Part shown: positions 5,585 through 58,472 of the stretch, piece after piece | Numbering within the stretch: the stretch's first letter is position 1 | How the letters are laid out: each line of letters begins with the position of its first letter | Assembly: GCA_000146465.1 (NCBI GenBank) | Contig: CP001949.1 | Direction: 5' to 3' (one strand) | Length of the DNA stretch: 64,000 nt | The notes under the pieces: generated by a model | Seen by the model: the letters and a program-made list of their open reading frames with translations, nothing else | Told to the model about the DNA's origin: nothing | Databases searched by the model: none | Position numbers and translations under genes: made by a program

Positions 5585-6304
5585 TTAAATGTTTGTAATC
5601 TCGAGGACAGATCTTCTGAGTCTTATGTAAGACTCGATCGATCCACATTTCTCGAGGAACTTCCCTTCATCTAGTGCTTCGCAGAGCAGAGGATCGATTT
5701 TCAGCTCGCATATAAAGCGAACACCCATCTCCATTGCAAGTCTTTCTCCTCCTCTTGCCCCAAATATGTTGGTGGGGTTTCCACAGGACTCGCAGCAGTA
5801 TCCACTCATATTCTCCACAAGCCCGAGAATCTGGATTCCATTAGAAATGCAAAAGTCAATTGCTCTCGAAGAATCTCCTAGGGAGATGTTCTGCGGAGTA
5901 GTGGCAATCAAAACACTAATGTCCTTTCCAACCAGAAATCCATGTTCCTCAGATATTCCTGGAGGCATATCAATCACTACGTTATCAAAGCCATCGGCCG
6001 ATTCATAGAACATCGATAATACAGACATCTTCTTTGGACCTCTCCATATCACAGAGTCACTTTCCTTCATAAGCAAAGCCATCGAAAGTATGTACAAGTT
6101 CTCAGATGCTTTGGCCGGAATCAATCCCTTCTCTCCTTTGTATATCTTTTCCTTAATCCCAAGTCCACTAGCCACACTTGGCCCACACAGATCAAAGTCC
6201 AACAGCAGTGTCTTTCCTCTTTCGGACATCGCCGTGCTCAGCATGATAGAGATCGAGCTTTTTCCAACTCCTCCCTTACCACTCATAACAGCCACCATGA
6301 CCAT
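5585..6304 (-). CDS. Cfd1/Nbp35-type (Mrp/NBP35 family) P-loop ATPase, cytosolic Fe-S cluster assembly
   Basis: MSGKGGVGKS deviant Walker A at the N-terminus; C-terminal CxxC-type cysteines (GYCCESCG); ATG preceded by a CCCC run; convergent with the Rab gene at a 12-bp spacing. Confidence 0.7.
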   Translation of the reverse strand: MVMVAVMSGKGGVGKSSISIMLSTAMSERGKTLLLDFDLCGPSVASGLGIKEKIYKGEKGLIPAKASENLYILSMALLMKESDSVIWRGPKKMSVLSMFYESADGFDNVVIDMPPGISEEHGFLVGKDISVLIATTPQNISLGDSSRAIDFCISNGIQILGLVENMSGYCCESCGNPTNIFGARGGERLAMEMGVRFICELKIDPLLCEALDEGKFLEKCGSIESYIRLRRSVLEITNI

Positions 6305-6328
6305 ACAAGGGGTGCCCCAATCAGTCTA

Positions 6329-6937
6329 TCATTCAATTTCTTCCGACTCATTTACAGACGCCAGTTTCTTCACAAATACTCTTTCCTTCCTTTTCACTAC
6401 AGGCAATCTTCTTGGCTTGGCTGTTGGAAGTAGTATAGAGGGAAACTCCTTGATGTTATGCACCTTTGCATTAGGCCTGTCTTGGAATTTTATCTTTCTT
6501 TTCCGTCTTCTACTTATGTGCTCTGGACATCTGCTTTCTCCATCAAACACAAGAACAACATATCTGTATCCAGAATTCTTGAGAGTATTCTTTTCAACAA
6601 TTTCCTTCATACATTTTTTTTTTGTTCCCTTTGCATGACCATTCGAGTCCTTCTTGGCTAACGGATCTTTCCCCTTCCTCATTTGGTATCCAACAGACAC
6701 TTTTCTTTTCCTAATCGTCCCATCTTCTACAAGCTTTGCTTCCTTTTTCTTTCTAGGCTTCCTTCTTTTAAAAGCCCCGAAGCCCAACTCAGTCTTATTT
6801 TCTTCGAGCCTCTTCGCCATTCCCCTTTTCAATATCTCACTTCGGAGTCCGATGTTGTTTAGTAGTGAGTATTCCCTATTTAGAAGATACATATCTATCT
6901 CCCTCTTAGAAGGCCTTCCTATAAATATTTCATCCAT
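6329..6937 (-). CDS. Basic lysine/arginine-rich hypothetical protein (nucleolar-type composition)
   Basis: ORF downstream of ERCC4 on the same strand; first in-frame ATG (MDEIF) at 6937 overlaps the last codons of ERCC4; an alternative ATG lies at 6892. Confidence 0.3.
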   Translation of the reverse strand: MDEIFIGRPSKREIDMYLLNREYSLLNNIGLRSEILKRGMAKRLEENKTELGFGAFKRRKPRKKKEAKLVEDGTIRKRKVSVGYQMRKGKDPLAKKDSNGHAKGTKKKCMKEIVEKNTLKNSGYRYVVLVFDGESRCPEHISRRRKRKIKFQDRPNAKVHNIKEFPSILLPTAKPRRLPVVKRKERVFVKKLASVNESEEIE

Positions 6938-9116
6938 CAATTTCCTCCCCTGCTTTGGCTTTTGTTTTATTCTCTCCTCCGCCCTCCTGCCTGAAGAAGT
7001 TGTATATAAGAACACCATTCTCTCTCCCAAGAGTCAACTCAAGGCGATCCATGCTGGAGAATATGAGGTCCTTCAGGCTCTTGAAACATTTTCGAACCTT
7101 TAGGATGTTGAACTGTGTTATTCCAGGAATACTCAGAAGTATCTCATGGAGGACGGGGTCCATCTTATGCCTTTCAGAAACACTTGGTACATCTTCCTTC
7201 CTCTGAAGATCTCTTATCACCTTTGTGGAAAATAGTCTTGACTCAGACCAGATAACCCTCAGCATTCCGAAGTTAAACAGAAGCAAGGCAAACTTTGCTG
7301 CAATGCTGTTTTTGAATGTGTCCTGGTCATAGCGGTAGTGGTCAGACAGACATGGCCTTCCATCAAACTCAAGGAGGAGAACAGGGCTTGGATACCTGTG
7401 GCATAGCATGCTCATCTGAGAATAAAGCCTTCCTGTCCCTAGAGATGATATAAAGTCGGAGATCGATTTTCTTTCGATGCAGATTGTGGGCCCTATTAGG
7501 TAATCTCCAGTGGGAAGAGTGGAAATGCATATCTTGTTTCTTGCCCTGAACAGAAAGAAGGGAAGTTCGGCTCTTAGCTCCCTGGAGTCAACCACAACCG
7601 TGTAGTCCTTCTCTCCCGACTCATGCTCCTCTAGATCAATCACATCCTCCCCATCCAATTGCAAAGGAAGTCTTGATCTCTCTTCTATGAGCTTTTCAAA
7701 CGATGTCTTTTCTCTTCTTATCTCATTCAAGTATCTTTGTTCCTCTAGAGACGAGGAGTGCATAAGGAAAAACACTTTAACAGGATGCATCACCCTGTAT
7801 CTTTCTATCTTCCTAACGCTGTCCTGCCCAGATTCTACAAAAATCACATTCTCATAACTGCTCTCGTAATACTTGAACTCGTAGTGGGTCAAGATCTTTA
7901 CTGTGTTCTCCTTCTTTTCAATACTCTCGACAGAGACTAGACCAAACACAACAAAAACATTTAAGATCATGTTCCTGACTGCACGGTTGGAAACTAATAC
8001 TATCGACGATGCCTCTCCTAACTCCTGCAGAATCTCTATCAATTTCTTGATCTTTGGATTCAAGGTATAGAAGGCTCTTAACTTGGAATCGGAAAGTCCC
8101 AAGAGAGATTCCAGTTCATTCTTCTCATTTCTCTTTTCCTTCTGCTCCCTAATATCTTCTATTTTTTGGATTGCTTCTTCAAACTGTTCTCTGGCTCCAT
8201 CAATTAGTACATGAGATATTGGTAGATTGATCCATGTGCTATCCTTTCCAAGTTCTACTTGCTTCTTTACAATTTCCTTGACATATCCATAGAACGATCC
8301 TGGATCGCAAGAAAACAGCAGAAAAATCAATCCACGTATGTCATACAGATCCTCCATTATCCTGCTGTTCAAAACGTTCATCTGCTTGAATGTCTTGCGG
8401 ATACTTCCAAATATTATGGCCTCTGCATCCACCTCCTCTCGATCAGGACCTCTGAAGGCCATTTTCAGAAGCCCGTTGATGATCTCCAAAAGAATCACTT
8501 GGAGATGACTGCGGCTCTCCGACATTTTGAACTTGATCTCAACAACATCTGCATCCCCTTTCAAGGACTTCTCGACCGAGGAATGGAATCGTGGGAAAAA
8601 AACAACCTTGTTCATCTTCAGGCTTTTCATCTTCCTGGCTAGCGGAGAGAACCCAAGAGAAAGAGGCACAGGCGACTCCGAAAACCCGTTTATGAATCCT
8701 GTTTTATTCTTTGATCTGAAGACATGGCTGATGAAGGACTCCAGCGATGTCTCTGTTACTGTCTCTGCATGGTTGACAAGAATGCAATCTATTTTCTCAA
8801 CATCCACTGTGCCGTCAATCATGTCTGCAAGAAATACACGGCTACTTGCAATAAACACTCCTCCATTGAGATACTTTTCTCTCCTTCTTGTCCTTGGCAA
8901 AGTTCTTACATCATGAAGGAAAGGAGACTCCATCCTCAGAAGCATCGATTCGTCCTCTGTATTGAAATTCACCAGAAGCACAAGATAGGTCTTCTCCAGA
9001 TACTTCTTTACCACCTCCAAAATTATCCCTTGGATGTTAAGGCCTCCCCCCATTACAAGAAGGCTGTTTTGTCCGTCGCATGTTTGAAGTGCTTCTTTCT
9101 CGTACTCCAAGAGCAT
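6930..9116 (-). CDS. XPF/ERCC4 (Rad1) structure-specific endonuclease
   Basis: N-terminus MLLEYEK aligns with the XPF start (LLEYE...); helicase-like domain; C-terminal ERCC4 nuclease motifs (ERKS.SDF..S...GRL..Q) and a tandem HhH; the track ORF extends to 9581 but residues upstream of M156 are non-homologous and overlap Rpb4 on the other strand. Confidence 0.8.
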   Translation of the reverse strand: MLLEYEKEALQTCDGQNSLLVMGGGLNIQGIILEVVKKYLEKTYLVLLVNFNTEDESMLLRMESPFLHDVRTLPRTRRREKYLNGGVFIASSRVFLADMIDGTVDVEKIDCILVNHAETVTETSLESFISHVFRSKNKTGFINGFSESPVPLSLGFSPLARKMKSLKMNKVVFFPRFHSSVEKSLKGDADVVEIKFKMSESRSHLQVILLEIINGLLKMAFRGPDREEVDAEAIIFGSIRKTFKQMNVLNSRIMEDLYDIRGLIFLLFSCDPGSFYGYVKEIVKKQVELGKDSTWINLPISHVLIDGAREQFEEAIQKIEDIREQKEKRNEKNELESLLGLSDSKLRAFYTLNPKIKKLIEILQELGEASSIVLVSNRAVRNMILNVFVVFGLVSVESIEKKENTVKILTHYEFKYYESSYENVIFVESGQDSVRKIERYRVMHPVKVFFLMHSSSLEEQRYLNEIRREKTSFEKLIEERSRLPLQLDGEDVIDLEEHESGEKDYTVVVDSRELRAELPFFLFRARNKICISTLPTGDYLIGPTICIERKSISDFISSLGTGRLYSQMSMLCHRYPSPVLLLEFDGRPCLSDHYRYDQDTFKNSIAAKFALLLFNFGMLRVIWSESRLFSTKVIRDLQRKEDVPSVSERHKMDPVLHEILLSIPGITQFNILKVRKCFKSLKDLIFSSMDRLELTLGRENGVLIYNFFRQEGGGENKTKAKAGEEIDG

Positions 9117-9171
9117 TTTGGGATTAGAAGATGACATGCTCAAGTGAGAGATATTTTCAAGCCCTAAATCG

Positions 9172-9534
9172 ATGGAAATCGATGAGTGTGCTGAGGATAT
9201 AAAAGACTCCCATCCAGTTATGCTTGCCGAGGCAAGATATTTGCTTGAAGGACAGAAAGAAAGATTCCGAGCAGATTTTAGATCGAATGCATCGAAGATA
9301 TTTAGATCAACATTAGGATATTTGGACGAGTTCTGCAGGATTAAAGACAAGTCGGTTGCAGAAGACCTCCGAACAACCTTTTCTGGATTAGGGTTCAGCG
9401 AGGTTGAGATAGCCTTGCTTGGATCCCTATTCCCCCAGTCTGTTGAGGAGGCCAAGTCACTCATTCCATCTCTGGCGTCTAAGGATGATGACACAATCAG
9501 CCATGCTGTTGAGAAGATACAGCAGCTTATGTGA
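9172..9534 (+). CDS. RNA polymerase II subunit Rpb4
   Basis: 120 aa; C-terminal half FPQSVEEAKSLIPSL...EKIQ matches the Rpb4/HRDC-like signature (CPET.EEAKALIPSL...IQ); ATG preceded by GCCCTAAATCG. Confidence 0.6.
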   Translation: MEIDECAEDIKDSHPVMLAEARYLLEGQKERFRADFRSNASKIFRSTLGYLDEFCRIKDKSVAEDLRTTFSGLGFSEVEIALLGSLFPQSVEEAKSLIPSLASKDDDTISHAVEKIQQLM

Positions 9535-22317: not shown

Positions 22318-22839
22318 ATGAACTTGGCGTCGCAGTGGGTTCTTTGGCAGAACAACAACGACGAGTCGAATGCCAAGAGCTGGGGAGACGACCTCATGGT
22401 TGTTGGGGAGGTGTCGACGATACCGGAGTTCCTGTATCTCTGTGACGAGATATCGAATGTCGGGGTTGGAAAGCTGTGCACAATGAATCTGTTTAAGAAA
22501 GGAATCAAGCCGATGTGGGAGGATGAGGGAAACATAGAAGGAGGAAGAATTATAATGGATGTTCCTGTGGTGGGCAAGGACAGTATTGATGAGCTGTGGA
22601 AAAGAACCATGGCGTTCTGTGTCTCGAATACCGTCGATAACATATGCGGGTGTGTACTCAGTGAAAAACAGTCGTTTTACAAGGTGGCAATCTGGTTTGG
22701 GAAAGATTATAACCAGGATTCGATTAAGGACATGTGGCAAGAAGCCCTTGGAGGGGGAAAGCTATCCATCTACTCTTTCTTGCACAAGAAGTCGTTGGAC
22801 AGCAACAAAGGAAAAAAAAAGTGGGGAGGAAGAAGGTAG
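22318..22839 (+). CDS. Translation initiation factor eIF4E (cap-binding)
   Basis: Conserved Trp pattern and KPMWED; ends at TAG; ATG preceded by GGATCCCTGA. Confidence 0.8.
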   Translation: MNLASQWVLWQNNNDESNAKSWGDDLMVVGEVSTIPEFLYLCDEISNVGVGKLCTMNLFKKGIKPMWEDEGNIEGGRIIMDVPVVGKDSIDELWKRTMAFCVSNTVDNICGCVLSEKQSFYKVAIWFGKDYNQDSIKDMWQEALGGGKLSIYSFLHKKSLDSNKGKKKWGGRR

Positions 22840-25436: not shown

Positions 25437-25509
25437 GTGACCTTAGTGTAGTGGTTATCACGTTCGTCTAACACGCGGAAGGTCCCCAGTTCGAGCCTGG
25501 GAGGTCGCA
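25437..25509 (+). tRNA. tRNA-Val (anticodon AAC)
   Basis: 73-nt cloverleaf: 7-bp acceptor gtgacct/aggtcgc, T-arm cccag-ttcgagc-ctggg, anticodon AAC at 25470-25472; near-identical architecture to metazoan tRNA-Val-AAC; followed by TTTTT. Confidence 0.85.
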
Positions 25510-25557: not shown

Positions 25558-25641
25558 TCTCCCAAGCTGGAGTCGAACCAGCGGCCATTCGATAACGGCA
25601 TACTTCTACAGTCGAATGCTCTACCACTGAGCTATTGGGAG
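25558..25641 (-). tRNA. tRNA-Tyr (anticodon GTA) with a 12-nt intron at the canonical 37/38 position (intron 25594..25605)
   Basis: Acceptor ctcccaa/ttgggag, D-arm gctc-agtggta-gagc, anticodon stem ttcga/tcgaa, loop CUGUAG|A, T-arm gctgg-ttcgact-ccagc; 84 nt = 72 + 12. Confidence 0.85.
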
Positions 25642-25742: not shown

Positions 25743-26117
25743 TCACAGCTCTCGAATGTTCTTCGACTTGAATGGCGATCGAGGAAATGAGGAAAATAAA
25801 AGATCCATCTCGGTTTCATCCTCTTGGGATGCTCTGTTCATTTCTTGTGCCGGAGGCTTTGTCTTCTCTGTGATCTCTCTCAGCGCTGTGTATCTCTTCC
25901 TCTGCTTTACCTTGGTAGGTGTAAACTCCTTGATGTGTGGATTGTAGTTCTCCTTCTCAGGTAGGTTGTCAAACCCTGCACCATCTGGTCTTTCACATCT
26001 CATGTTAGGGATTCCTCCTATTGTCCAATAAGTCCATTTTGGAGGGAAGATTCCAAGACCTTGCAAAATAACAGCATTCAAAGCCCTAAGAAGAGTACAG
26101 AATTTATTGTTACACAT
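25743..26117 (-). CDS. 124-aa ORF immediately downstream of the multi-exon membrane gene; either a 4th exon (via the non-consensus 28-nt intron GTAACA...CTTCTTAG at 26086..26113) or a separate small gene
   Basis: Frame can be reached from exon 3 only through a non-consensus intron; it has its own ATG at 26117. Confidence 0.25.
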   Translation of the reverse strand: MCNNKFCTLLRALNAVILQGLGIFPPKWTYWTIGGIPNMRCERPDGAGFDNLPEKENYNPHIKEFTPTKVKQRKRYTALREITEKTKPPAQEMNRASQEDETEMDLLFSSFPRSPFKSKNIREL

Positions 26118-27087
26118 CCGGAATGCCCTTGTCCCTCTTTACCTTCAGTACATTCCGCTCTTTCCCTGCGGGGTAAAACAACTCCTTTAGCCCAGATCCG
26201 AAGTACCTGTAGTCCAAGACCGAGTAATACAGAAAAATCAGGTTTATAACTGCCTCGAAGTTATTCCTTATGATGAAGAGCCTAAAATTAAAAATGCTCA
26301 CTTACCTCCTCAGATGCCAATCCAGAGCGTCACTGTTCCTATGTCTCGAAACCTGGGATGTACAGTACGAAAGATTCAAGGCTGTTGCCATGATTAGAGA
26401 CATCCTTTGGCCCTCATTTTCTTCATTAGGCCTCATGAACATTAAGAAAAAGGTGATAACCTCGAGAATATGGTCAAGCACCATCAAGAAAGCCTCTAAA
26501 GAGTTTACAGTGTAGTATTTGATCCCCTCGATCTGAAGATATATCCCCTGGATGGCTGCTAGGATCATTAGAAACTTCGATGCATCGTACCGGGCCCTTG
26601 CTTTGTATGCAGCTTAAAATTATATGTGTCACTTACCTTTCAGCTTGCTGCTAACACCCCCCTGCTTAAAATAGTACCATTCAAACATGTCTCCATATTC
26701 CTTGCATACGAAGTACATCCTAATAAACTCTCCAACGCATAGTCCTAAATACAAAAGGGAAAAAGCCACAACTCCCAGGTTGTGATTGGTAAACTTGAAA
26801 ACGCTTTCCACAATCACAGATGCCTCCAGAGAAGCTATGAGAATGATAACCCAGTATGCCTTGCACTGCTCAAGGTTTTTTCTCGACATTGCATTTTCAA
26901 GATAGATAAACATGTAGACGTTTGTAACACATATGGACAGACACATCGATCGGATTATGACCATTTGCTTACCGATAATGTTTTTCCGGTAAAATCCAAT
27001 TCCGATGACTAATATCCTCAAAAGCAAGTACATAAACGAAACCTTCCTCCCTTTGTTCAACAGTTCGTCCTTCCCCAACAAGTCCAT
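26110..27087 (-). CDS. Multi-pass membrane protein encoded by at least 3 exons (27087..26637, 26612..26306, 26281..26110), tentatively TLC/TRAM-LAG1-like; a possible 4th exon is 25743..26085
   Basis: Three consecutive minus-strand track ORFs in different frames join exactly when two 24-nt introns (GTAAGTGACACATATAATTTTAAG, GTAAGTGAGCATTTTTAATTTTAG) are removed; phases match and the continuous frame is hydrophobic; the ATG at 27087 is preceded by GACCCATTGA. Confidence 0.55.
26282..26305 (-). other. Spliceosomal intron, 24 nt, GTAAGTGA...TAATTTTAG
   Basis: Removal joins exon frames (phase 2) without a stop. Confidence 0.65.
26613..26636 (-). other. Spliceosomal intron, 24 nt, GTAAGTGA...AATTTTAAG
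   Basis: Removal joins exon frames (phase 1) without a stop. Confidence 0.65.
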
Positions 27088-27266: not shown

Positions 27267-28151
27267 CTAGAACCCGTTCCTTGTGAAGACAATTTGGCCA
27301 TATGCTTTCTTCTGCACAGGTATAATGTCCCCTCTTGAGCTCATCAAAAGAATGGAATAGAATGTCCTTGCTCTTGTCCTTCTGCTTGTGCCAGCATACT
27401 CGTCGAAGTCTCCATTGCTCAGCAGGATGCTTGCCATGTCTTCGCTGGAAGTGCTGTTTGAAAAGTCCTCTCTACTCGAATGCCTAGACCAATTACGTGC
27501 TTTTTCTACAGAGTCAAAGGAAGACATCCCGGCATACAACATCCCAGTCCCCTGGATTGGAGGTCTTATCTTCTTAACTTCCCTGGTGATAAAGGCTTCT
27601 TCTTCAAACACCCGGGTTTCAGCCCTCTCTTCATGCTTGGATGTTCTTGAAGCTCCTGCTTTATTGATATTCAGTACTGTTGTGCTGTCCACTACATTCT
27701 AAAGACGCTTTCTGGATATATGTTCCGGCCCGTCCACAACTCCAAATGTTTCGCTGTAGCTAAACATTATACTATCCATACAATCGACCCCATCCAGTTC
27801 GGAGCTACAGACACTTGCCACATATCCTGTTTCAATCGAAAGCATGTTCTTCTTTTTTCTTTCCACCGTCCTTCTCCTCTTTTTTCTTCTATCTAGTATC
27901 CCAGCTAGCGATCTAATTTCAAGCAGCTGAATCCTAACTTTGGCTTTATAGATTCTTATCAGCATTTGAAGAAATACCGAGGCTCCTCTTAACGCATACA
28001 CCGGAAAGATGTCCACCACAGCCTTCACAACCCCTGGAATCCAGATCTTTTCCACAGCCTTTCTTCCAATTCGGACTTTCCTCCCCCTCTTCCCAAGTAT
28101 TCGGAGAAAGGTCAATGCTTCTTGATTCCTAAGGAGATTTTGGAAAGCCAT
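27267..28151 (-). pseudogene. Rad21/Scc1-type kleisin (cohesin subunit) reading frame interrupted by one in-frame TAG (plus strand 27699..27701)
   Basis: N-terminal kleisin motif (EKIW...VYALRGASVFLQMLIRIYKAKVRIQLL) and C-terminal winged-helix motif (TRARTFYSILLMSSRGDIIPVQKKAYGQIV) lie in the same frame on either side of the TAG; the track shows two ORFs, the second starting at a GTG. Confidence 0.55.
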
Positions 28152-35911: not shown

Positions 35912-36876
35912 ATGGAGAAGAATCAGGCCGAGCCAGAAAAGAACATAAGTTACACAAAACTTGCATTTTTCTTTTTCGTAATAAGAACAGTAGTAATAGG
36001 TCTGGCCTTACTATCGGGACCATACTTTGCACTAGATGACGAAACAACAACATTCAAGATGTTTATAATTTTCTTGGACATAACAAACATATTACAGTTT
36101 ATATTTCAATGGGACATAATTCAGCGTAAGATTCTATTTCAATATCTTCTATATATTCCTGTCCTTGCTTACTCTCTGACTCTTACAATCACGTTAATAG
36201 TTGATGCACACAATACTAACAGTTGTAACTTCAAAGTAGAAGGTAAAATTAAGAAATTAGCTATTGGATATATCTATACATATATGGGAATTCTTCTTGG
36301 GGAAGTTGCTCTCCTTCCAATCATATACAGAAGACTCAAGAGTGACTTTATGTGGGCAAACTTCAAAAAGCTAGGAGCTAACACAGCTATTAATGGTAAG
36401 TGGAGATAAGTAATTTTAGATGCCTTCGGGAGGAGAGAACAGTTTAGTGCAATAAGAAGATTTATGTTGATTTTTCTGTGTGGAGAAGTTGCAAGTTTCA
36501 ATATAAGCATAAGAGATAACAAAGATGTCTTCTTTTTTGTAGCAGGGACACAGATATTTGTGATTTTCCTTTCTTTTATATTTTTCAACGAAGAATATGT
36601 ACATCAGAGAAGGTTTCTTCTGGGATTTTCCGGACTGTGTACATTAGGAGGAATAGCATACACTGTGATTTATATTGTTATGGCTAGTAGGAGTAGCGAA
36701 ATAAGAAAGTAAGTGAAGATGTTAATTTTAGAGGAGTTATTTCCGAAATTGTATTCTATACAATTACAATGCTTATTTTCTTTGTTGGAGCCTTTAGGGA
36801 TTATCAGACATTTGGGAAGGGACTAAAAGATTATTATAGTGGAAGTCTTGGAATAAGAAAAAAACTCACACCTTAG
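35912..36876 (+). CDS. Multi-pass membrane protein encoded by 3 exons (35912..36395, 36420..36708, 36732..36876), 305 aa
   Basis: Two track ORFs plus an unlisted 3' frame join precisely after removing introns GTAAGTGGAGATAAGTAATTTTAG (24 nt) and GTAAGTGAAGATGTTAATTTTAG (23 nt); total CDS is 918 nt in frame and ends at TAG 36874-36876. Confidence 0.55.
36396..36419 (+). other. Spliceosomal intron, 24 nt
   Basis: GTAAGTGG...TAATTTTAG; phase 1; restores the frame. Confidence 0.65.
36709..36731 (+). other. Spliceosomal intron, 23 nt
   Basis: GTAAGTGA...TAATTTTAG; phase 2; restores the frame. Confidence 0.65.
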
Positions 36877-58196: not shown

Positions 58197-58472
58197 ATGG
58201 AGTTGCGATATAGATTGTAAGTGGAAGCAACTAATTTTAGGGTTTTTGGCAGAAAGGGTGTTCTGATCGAAGACCGAGCTCTGAAGGAGTTTGTGAGCGG
58301 GCTTATCCGGGGCTTTGGGGGCCTTGATTTGCTGAGCAGAGTTAGTGTAAGATGTGATGGAGGAGTGATCAATATCTCGGCGGACAAAGAGGCTTCTAGC
58401 ATTGTGCATGGATCTCTATTTCTCTGCGGAGAGTATAAGTCTGTTGGATGTAGATTTGAGCGAATCGATTAA
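58197..58472 (+). CDS. Small two-exon gene (exons 58197..58216 and 58241..58472), 83 aa, probable ribosomal protein eL38 with a short N-terminal extension
   Basis: A 20-nt first exon (ATGGAGTTGCGATATAGATT) followed by the consensus 24-nt intron GTAAGTGGAAGCAACTAATTTTAG joins in phase to the track ORF, whose apparent start is a GTG inside the intron; VSVRC...ADKEASSIVHGSL parallels eL38 VKFKVRC...DKEKAEKLKQSL. Confidence 0.45.
58217..58240 (+). other. Spliceosomal intron, 24 nt
   Basis: GTAAGTGG...TAATTTTAG. Confidence 0.6.

Follow-up and report, generated by a model that had tools for sequence, protein, structure and literature searches.

Structure of the Locus

The locus analyzed here lies on the minus strand of a 64,000-nucleotide (nt) stretch of Encephalitozoon intestinalis DNA (assembly GCA_000146465.1, contig CP001949.1), hereinafter called the window. 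The list of open reading frames (ORFs) contains three minus-strand ORFs at this locus, namely 26629–27087 (152 amino acids, aa), 26302–26568 (88 aa), and 26110–26301 (63 aa, with a GTG start). Two 24-nt elements, GTAAGTGACACATATAATTTTAAG (26636–26613) and GTAAGTGAGCATTTTTAATTTTAG (26305–26282), are located between the ORFs. Joining of the segments 27087–26637, 26612–26306, and 26281–26110 (451 + 307 + 172 = 930 nt) gives a single ORF of 309 aa that ends with TAA. Judging by its sequence, the region 26110–27087 is very probably one three-exon gene, designated gene A, with two 24-nt GT–AG introns and a membrane protein as its product (Table 1).

The original prediction, made from the DNA letters alone, had named the same three minus-strand ORFs, and they were found exactly as described. 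Removal of two 24-nt introns, as it proposed, does yield one uninterrupted hydrophobic reading frame, with a coding sequence of 930 nt. Its other details need correction. The ORFs were said to lie in three different frames, whereas the distances between their starts (27087 − 26568 = 519 and 27087 − 26301 = 786) are each divisible by 3; all three ORFs share one frame because both introns are 24 nt long. The product, estimated at about 316 aa, has 309 aa after splicing. Four ORFs were attributed to the gene, but only three belong to it: the overlapping ORF 25743–26117 contains a separate downstream gene for an 86-aa protein (25743–26003), a gene of its own in E. cuniculi and E. hellem as well.

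Both introns start with GTAAGTG, in agreement with the strict GTAAGT consensus of the 5′ splice site, and end with AG. Their 3′ ends, TAATTTTAAG and TAATTTTAG, have a branch-point-like TAAT/TAAC box and a T-rich run directly before the terminal AG. The length of 24 nt falls inside the range of 22–76 nt reported for Encephalitozoon introns (PMC3629993). A search with the pattern GTAAGTN{7,15}TAAYTTN{1,2}AG found five matches in the window versus 0.01 expected, and none of 100 shuffled sequences reached five matches; a stricter pattern gave three matches versus 0.00 expected. In the related loci compared, every match of the intron motif corresponds to a position in gene A or in its paralog, gene B, described below. 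By these features, the introns of gene A are of the constrained Encephalitozoon type, in which GTAAGT at the 5′ end is followed by a branch-point-like TAAT/TAAC box and, within a few bases of it, by the first AG. The window does not differ from the sequence CP075165.1 over 15.9 kb, including the whole of gene A.

Encephalitozoon genomes contain 36–37 spliceosomal introns (Grisdale et al. 2013), and a table in the Ordospora genome paper gives 36 annotated spliceosomal introns for E. intestinalis, with reference to the accession update of 2014. All annotated introns of E. cuniculi are confirmed by RNA sequencing (RNA-seq), have strict motifs, and lead to a stop codon or frameshift when retained. 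No difference was detected between the short Encephalitozoon introns and those of gene A; in both, GT–AG borders, GTAAGT, a branch-point box beside the 3′ AG, and a length of 23–25 nt are combined with a stop or frameshift upon retention. The introns of gene A are located mid-gene (nt 452 and 783 of 930) and in a non-ribosomal gene; non-ribosomal cases are already present in the intron catalogue literature.

The reduced microsporidian spliceosome would excise both introns from the gene A pre-mRNA. Retained intron 1 brings in-frame TGA, TAA, and TAA codons into the coding sequence, and retained intron 2 brings the in-frame TAA of its 5′ splice site. Transcripts keeping intron 1 or intron 2 would stop inside the intron and give only a 152-aa or a 253-aa truncation, respectively. 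For 30 of the 37 introns of E. cuniculi, the spliced form accounts for fewer than 50% of the transcripts. On the basis of this literature, the introns of gene A would be removed inefficiently, and a sizeable share of its transcripts is probably unable to encode the full protein.

Comparison with Related Species

A sequence search among 5.8 billion proteins revealed only two full-length relatives of the spliced 309-aa product. Both are annotated as hypothetical proteins, namely ECU08_0950 of E. cuniculi GB-M1 (311 aa; identity 59%, E = 2.7e-114, coverage 98%) and KMI_01g01590 of E. hellem (302 aa; identity 58%). The gene A product aligns to both without gaps over the two exon junctions, ...SKLK/AAYK... 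and ...HLRR/LFIIRN... (the slash marks the junction). These gapless and colinear orthologs support the multi-exon gene of the original proposal.

The genomic spans of the two orthologs (985 nt in E. cuniculi and 956 nt in E. hellem) are longer than their coding lengths. When the GTAAGT...AG elements at nt 452 and nt 782–784 are taken out, the deposited proteins of both species are reproduced exactly. More evidence was obtained from L007, a contig of the Logan assembly of SRR21023573 (54% GC), which shows the same synteny from HSF to the cNMP (cyclic nucleotide monophosphate)-binding gene as Encephalitozoon. It carries both paralogs (6001–6989 and 8502–9517) with two mini-introns each, every one of these genes being called as three fragments, and it is a relative with 41–46% identity in gene A. 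At nt 452, intron 1 has a length of 25 nt in E. cuniculi, 23 nt in E. hellem, and 23 nt in L007; because of these lengths, the reading frame in the other species is restored only by excision. The position of intron 2 is also kept in all three (in L007, nt 779 and 24 nt). The interiors of the introns are unrelated across species, and the splice signals are retained. In L007, gene B directly adjoins the cNMP-binding gene, a local arrangement unlike that of Encephalitozoon.

The gene order HSF, 301-aa gene, gene A, 86-aa gene, and cNMP-binding gene is shared. With the full-length best match, this gene order, and the exon structure, all of which agree with the orthologous group of ECU08_0950, gene A is the ortholog of ECU08_0950. 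ECU08_0950 and KMI_01g01590 share with gene A 58–59% identity over the full length, the chromosomal neighbourhood, and two mini-introns at the same codon positions and in the same phases; like the gene A product, they have no Pfam domain. They differ from it in intron lengths, by 1 nt (23–25 versus 24 nt), and in the intron interiors. Unlike its two orthologs, gene A is split into fragments or truncated in those public records of E. intestinalis that were inspected.

Transcription of ECU08_0950 was 82, 189, and 151 fragments per kilobase per million (FPKM) at 24, 48, and 72 h, respectively (PMC3629993, supplement). Going by the deposited annotation only, its introns would belong to the RNA-seq-confirmed set.

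Paralogous Gene B

The E. hellem protein KMI_01g01690 had surfaced as a distant match in an exhaustive search of representative sequences, and a tblastn search with it revealed a paralog, gene B, at 35912–36876 on the plus strand of the window, 9 kb from gene A. Its spliced product has 305 aa. The two introns of gene B (Table 1) account for two further of the five intron motifs of the window. Genes A and B agree in the eight-helix architecture of their products, in the three conserved motifs, and in their two introns, whose alignment columns and phases coincide. They differ in that their products are only about 21% identical and that gene B lacks the D-H pair discussed below and has a longer loop between transmembrane helices (TM) 3 and 4.

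L007 contains another pair of intron motifs, spaced by about 316 nt, within three fragment calls. Since the introns occupy the same columns and phases in genes A and B and L007 has this further pair, they predate the duplication. The introns are not universal in the family, because its member P0014 is encoded by one uninterrupted ORF. If the published number of approximately 36 introns per genome holds, the family carries four of the genome's introns, and this disproportionate share of so few introns may interest students of intron persistence.

Intron 1 is placed exactly between the two four-helix halves of the protein. Since splicing of most Encephalitozoon introns reaches less than half of the transcripts, there is a slim chance that intron retention in the paralogs is a maintained switch, setting the ratio of the full-length protein to a 152-aa four-helix half-protein, or an expression throttle, and that the introns are kept for this function.

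The E. cuniculi counterpart of gene B is probably ECU08_1030, according to gene order and numbering; its expression is 37–44 FPKM (PMC3629993, supplement). A literature text search for ECU08_0950 and ECU08_1030 found no paper. As for the E. hellem copy (JAGEXW010000001.1, L011 2501–3441), the second intron of the KMI_01g01690 model, GTAAGT...TTTTAGAG, is given a length of 25 nt, so that exon 3 is read in the wrong frame. With a 23-nt intron extending to the first AG, the protein has 305 aa and regains the conserved C-terminal RDYQTFGKGLK; the deposited model contains a frameshift from a 2-nt acceptor error.

Table 1. Genes, exons, introns, and tRNAs of the window discussed in the text. TM, transmembrane helix.
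Feature	Coordinates	Strand	Description
Gene A exon 1	26637–27087	−	451 nt, ATG at 27087; residues 1–150 and first base of codon 151; TM1–TM4 and conserved F.W.YFK..G motif; 58% identity to N-terminal part of ECU08_0950
Gene A intron 1	26613–26636	−	24 nt, phase 1, GTAAGTGACACATATAATTTTAAG; interrupts coding sequence at nt 452
Gene A exon 2	26306–26612	−	307 nt; AYK.RARY linker, TM5–TM7, NEE...QR loop
Gene A intron 2	26282–26305	−	24 nt, phase 2, GTAAGTGAGCATTTTTAATTTTAG; at nt 783 of 930
Gene A exon 3	26110–26281	−	172 nt including TAA stop; TM8 and C-terminal tail, family-invariant DYRYFGSGLK
Gene B exon 1	35912–36395	+	484 nt
Gene B intron 1	36396–36419	+	24 nt, phase 1, GTAAGTGGAGATAAGTAATTTTAG; alignment column of gene A intron 1
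Gene B exon 2	36420–36708	+	289 nt
Gene B intron 2	36709–36731	+	23 nt, phase 2, GTAAGTGAAGATGTTAATTTTAG; alignment column of gene A intron 2
Gene B exon 3	36732–36876	+	including TAG stop; conserved RDYQTFGKGLK motif at end
eIF4E ORF	22318–22836		exact match to ADM12019.1 (E. intestinalis ATCC 50506)
tRNA-Val(AAC)	25437–25509	+	between cNMP-binding gene and 86-aa gene
tRNA-Leu(TAG)	25558–25641	−	between cNMP-binding gene and 86-aa gene
Kleisin-like gene	27267–28151	−	ortholog of 301-aa E. cuniculi gene (weak Rad21/Rec8 Pfam mark) beside ECU08_0950
Fifth mini-intron	58217–58240	+	GTAAGTGGAAGCAACTAATTTTAG, after 20-nt first exon ATGGAGTTGCGATATAGATT; feature 58197–58472

Protein Family and Predicted Topology

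The E. cuniculi ortholog and the exon translations of the window served as queries in the comparisons with structures, representative sequences, and contigs. When 1.84 billion representatives were searched with a profile, only 12 relatives were recovered; several of these are exon-sized fragments from ORF-called assemblies, and none of the 12 has a functional name or Pfam mark. Four full-length proteins (296–339 aa) are among them, one being the E. hellem copy of gene B. Three distant members, 16–28% identical to genes A and B, originate from metagenomes or read assemblies, and the contig of one distant member, the one contig inspected, is compact, eukaryotic, and microsporidian-like. The proteins form a small orphan family of membrane proteins, known so far from compact, microsporidian-like genomes only.

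The residues invariant in the family are the polar intramembrane residues N56 (TM2) and E120 (TM4), further F140, G144, A152, and R156 (linker F.W.YFK..GA....AY..R), E215 and R220 (NEE...QR), and D276, F280, G281, G283, and L284 (DYR.FG.GLK). The AlphaFold2 program, using an alignment of nine rows, gave a model of ECU08_0950 with eight long helices (predicted local distance difference test, pLDDT, 77; predicted template modelling score, pTM, 0.73); with five rows, the pLDDT was 63. When lysine and arginine residues were mapped onto the window protein, 22 were on the side of the termini versus 6 on the opposite side. Because of these counts and the positive-inside rule, both termini and the three conserved motifs are placed in the cytosol. 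The membrane protein of the original prediction, which had suggested a topology analysis, is supported as a multi-pass one; by the helices of the ortholog model and the charge counts, the gene A product appears to be an eight-helix integral membrane protein with cytosolic termini and motifs. In the model, F.W.YFK..GA....AY..R follows TM4, NEE...QR lies between TM6 and TM7, and DYR.FG.GLK follows TM8. Intron 1 falls in the predicted cytosolic linker that joins helices 4 and 5, and the loop preceding helix 8 holds intron 2. A role as a transporter, a channel, or an endomembrane scaffold with a cytosol-facing working surface is a tentative and rather doubtful suggestion.

The segments ENAMSRKN (residues 64–71, after TM2) and ENEGQRMS (residues 214–221, after TM6) occupy nearly equal offsets within the N-terminal and C-terminal halves of the protein, a hint of an old 4 + 4 duplication; comparison of these halves in the hhalign program was not significant for such an internal duplication (probability 0.2).

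Annotation of the Locus

In CP075165.1, a telomere-to-telomere sequence, gene A appears as a 152-aa and an 88-aa gene called separately, and its exon 3 is uncalled; gene B is likewise split into calls of 165 aa and 82 aa. Two other assemblies also call the 152-aa ORF as a gene. The draft JBLUPK010000017.1 contains one gene A model of 249 aa (L005 11985–12770), also with exon 3 uncalled. This model has a 36-nt intron 1 (26601–26636), which uses an in-frame acceptor 12 nt downstream, so that the conserved AAYK is lost, and it ends at the stop inside the unremoved intron 2. According to the published descriptions, gene calling in the three draft assemblies of 2025 was performed with Prodigal and corrected later, introns included, and in the telomere-to-telomere paper introns were put into the annotations manually. 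The remark of the original prediction that a prokaryote-style annotation would fragment the gene applies to the two calls of CP075165.1 and to the truncated JBLUPK01 model, and it is literally correct because calls based on Prodigal are present at the locus.

The exact 309-aa sequence is absent from the protein collection searched, which is weak evidence, because the look-up also missed the deposited 152-aa fragment; an older E. intestinalis record may contain the correct model of gene A. Since the annotations of E. cuniculi and E. hellem already include the ortholog with both of these introns, the result amounts to known biology and a correction of gene models in E. intestinalis, with the paralog that shares both intron positions as a small addition. 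The established picture of microsporidian splicing is left as it is by the structure of gene A. In the E. intestinalis records inspected, including the telomere-to-telomere reference, both paralogs are fragmented or truncated, and corrected models would make the proteome of this human pathogen with approximately 1900 genes tidier, which has a small practical value.

Alternative Interpretations

Several points weigh against the proposed interpretation of gene A, those from database comparisons as regards the function of its product. In the hmmscan program, the 309-aa product gave nothing in Pfam at E ≤ 10 except two chance-level entries, and seven relatives gave no matches at E ≤ 1. The family profile had a sole chance match among PDB sequences (E = 2.1), and fold comparison produced nothing beyond generic helix bundles. 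Further, the predicted structure rests on a shallow alignment of nine rows, and the in-frame acceptor 12 nt downstream in intron 1 may be used in a minor isoform. The two Pfam entries, sub-threshold USP40 UBL (E = 0.003, below the cutoff) and T_cell_tran_alt (E = 2.2), were taken as chance. As for the folds, generic four-helix, tetraspan-like membrane bundles (tweety homologs, LCI1, MS4A/Fc epsilon RI beta, claudin/TARP, and synaptophysin) were 2–12% identical, with only about half of the protein aligned; because the scores of soluble and designed bundles are just as good, the likeness is one of topology and not homology.

It is quite unlikely that the three-exon model is right except for intron 1, which would be the 36-nt element 26636–26601 with deletion of the residues AAYK. 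Such a GT...AG element uses the same donor, keeps the frame, and fits the length of the deposited 249-aa product, and rare downstream alternative acceptors have been reported in E. cuniculi. However, all gene A orthologs retain A-Y-K/R, and A152 does not vary within the family; the ortholog introns of 23–25 nt end at the AG nearest to the TAAT box, and the 249-aa model also stops in the unremoved intron 2.

The original prediction had assigned the product of the spliced gene to TLC/TRAM-LAG1-like proteins by the pattern LMVLDHILEV. That the protein is a divergent member of the TLC-domain family (TRAM/LAG1/CLN8), for example a ceramide-synthase-like or a translocon-associated one, is very unlikely. 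The pattern does contain a D-H pair within a membrane helix, TM6, and the product, with about 310 aa and approximately eight membrane helices, resembles TRAM-like proteins in length and helix number. TLC proteins (PF03798) are, like the gene A product, multi-pass membrane proteins of about 300 aa, with a conserved intramembrane His/Asp-containing motif of the Lag1 type. In contrast, the gene A family has no conserved His-containing motif: D197-H198 is limited to the gene A clade, and its place is taken by G-S/T, A-V, Q-A, or F-S in gene B (both species), P0012, P0014, P0016, and P0018. No match to PF03798 was found in hmmscan at E ≤ 10 for the window protein or at E ≤ 1 for its seven relatives, and no ceramide synthase or TRAM chain is among the fold matches listed, the structures compared being predicted models. 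The gene A product is very probably not TLC/ceramide-synthase-like. Of the homology search that the prediction had proposed for the spliced product, the part concerning relatives was positive, with orthologs in Encephalitozoon, and the part concerning a TLC profile was negative.

The presence of two or three independent small genes without splicing is highly improbable. The 152-aa ORF is called as a gene in three assemblies, one of them CP075165.1, which also calls the 88-aa ORF separately, and both ORFs begin with ATG. Nevertheless, these separate annotations originate from Prodigal, a prokaryotic gene caller; the fragments are jointly colinear with single proteins of 302–311 aa in two sister species, the breaks fall exactly on canonical mini-intron motifs that the four species and the paralog have in common, and the GTG start of the third ORF lies within an intron.

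Least probable of all is a pseudogene with nonsense mutations or stop-codon readthrough in the E. intestinalis copy: both interruptions are multiples of 3 nt, the ORFs share one frame, and the adjacent kleisin-like gene has a genuine in-frame TAG, but three stops would have to be passed in intron 1, nothing in the ortholog proteins corresponds to the interrupting segments, every family-invariant residue is intact, and the interruptions of 23 or 25 nt in the orthologs make readthrough unworkable there, so that neither readthrough nor a broken pseudogene can serve as a general explanation.

Neighbouring Genes and Other Features of the Window

The remaining features of the window are given in Table 1. 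Long spurious ORFs overlie the genes of tRNA-Val(AAC) and tRNA-Leu(TAG). In the kleisin-like gene, the in-frame TAG is located at 27699–27701, in place of R in E. cuniculi and K in E. hellem, and both halves around it align in frame to the orthologs. This TAG was present in all four E. intestinalis loci checked, a read assembly included, and one annotation bridges it with a pseudo-intron of 15 nt. A nonsense allele, a split gene, and readthrough are all conceivable explanations.

In addition, splicing at the fifth mini-intron would join its short first exon to the ORF 58241–58472 and give a protein of about 84 aa that starts with MELRYRLVFGRKGVLIED...
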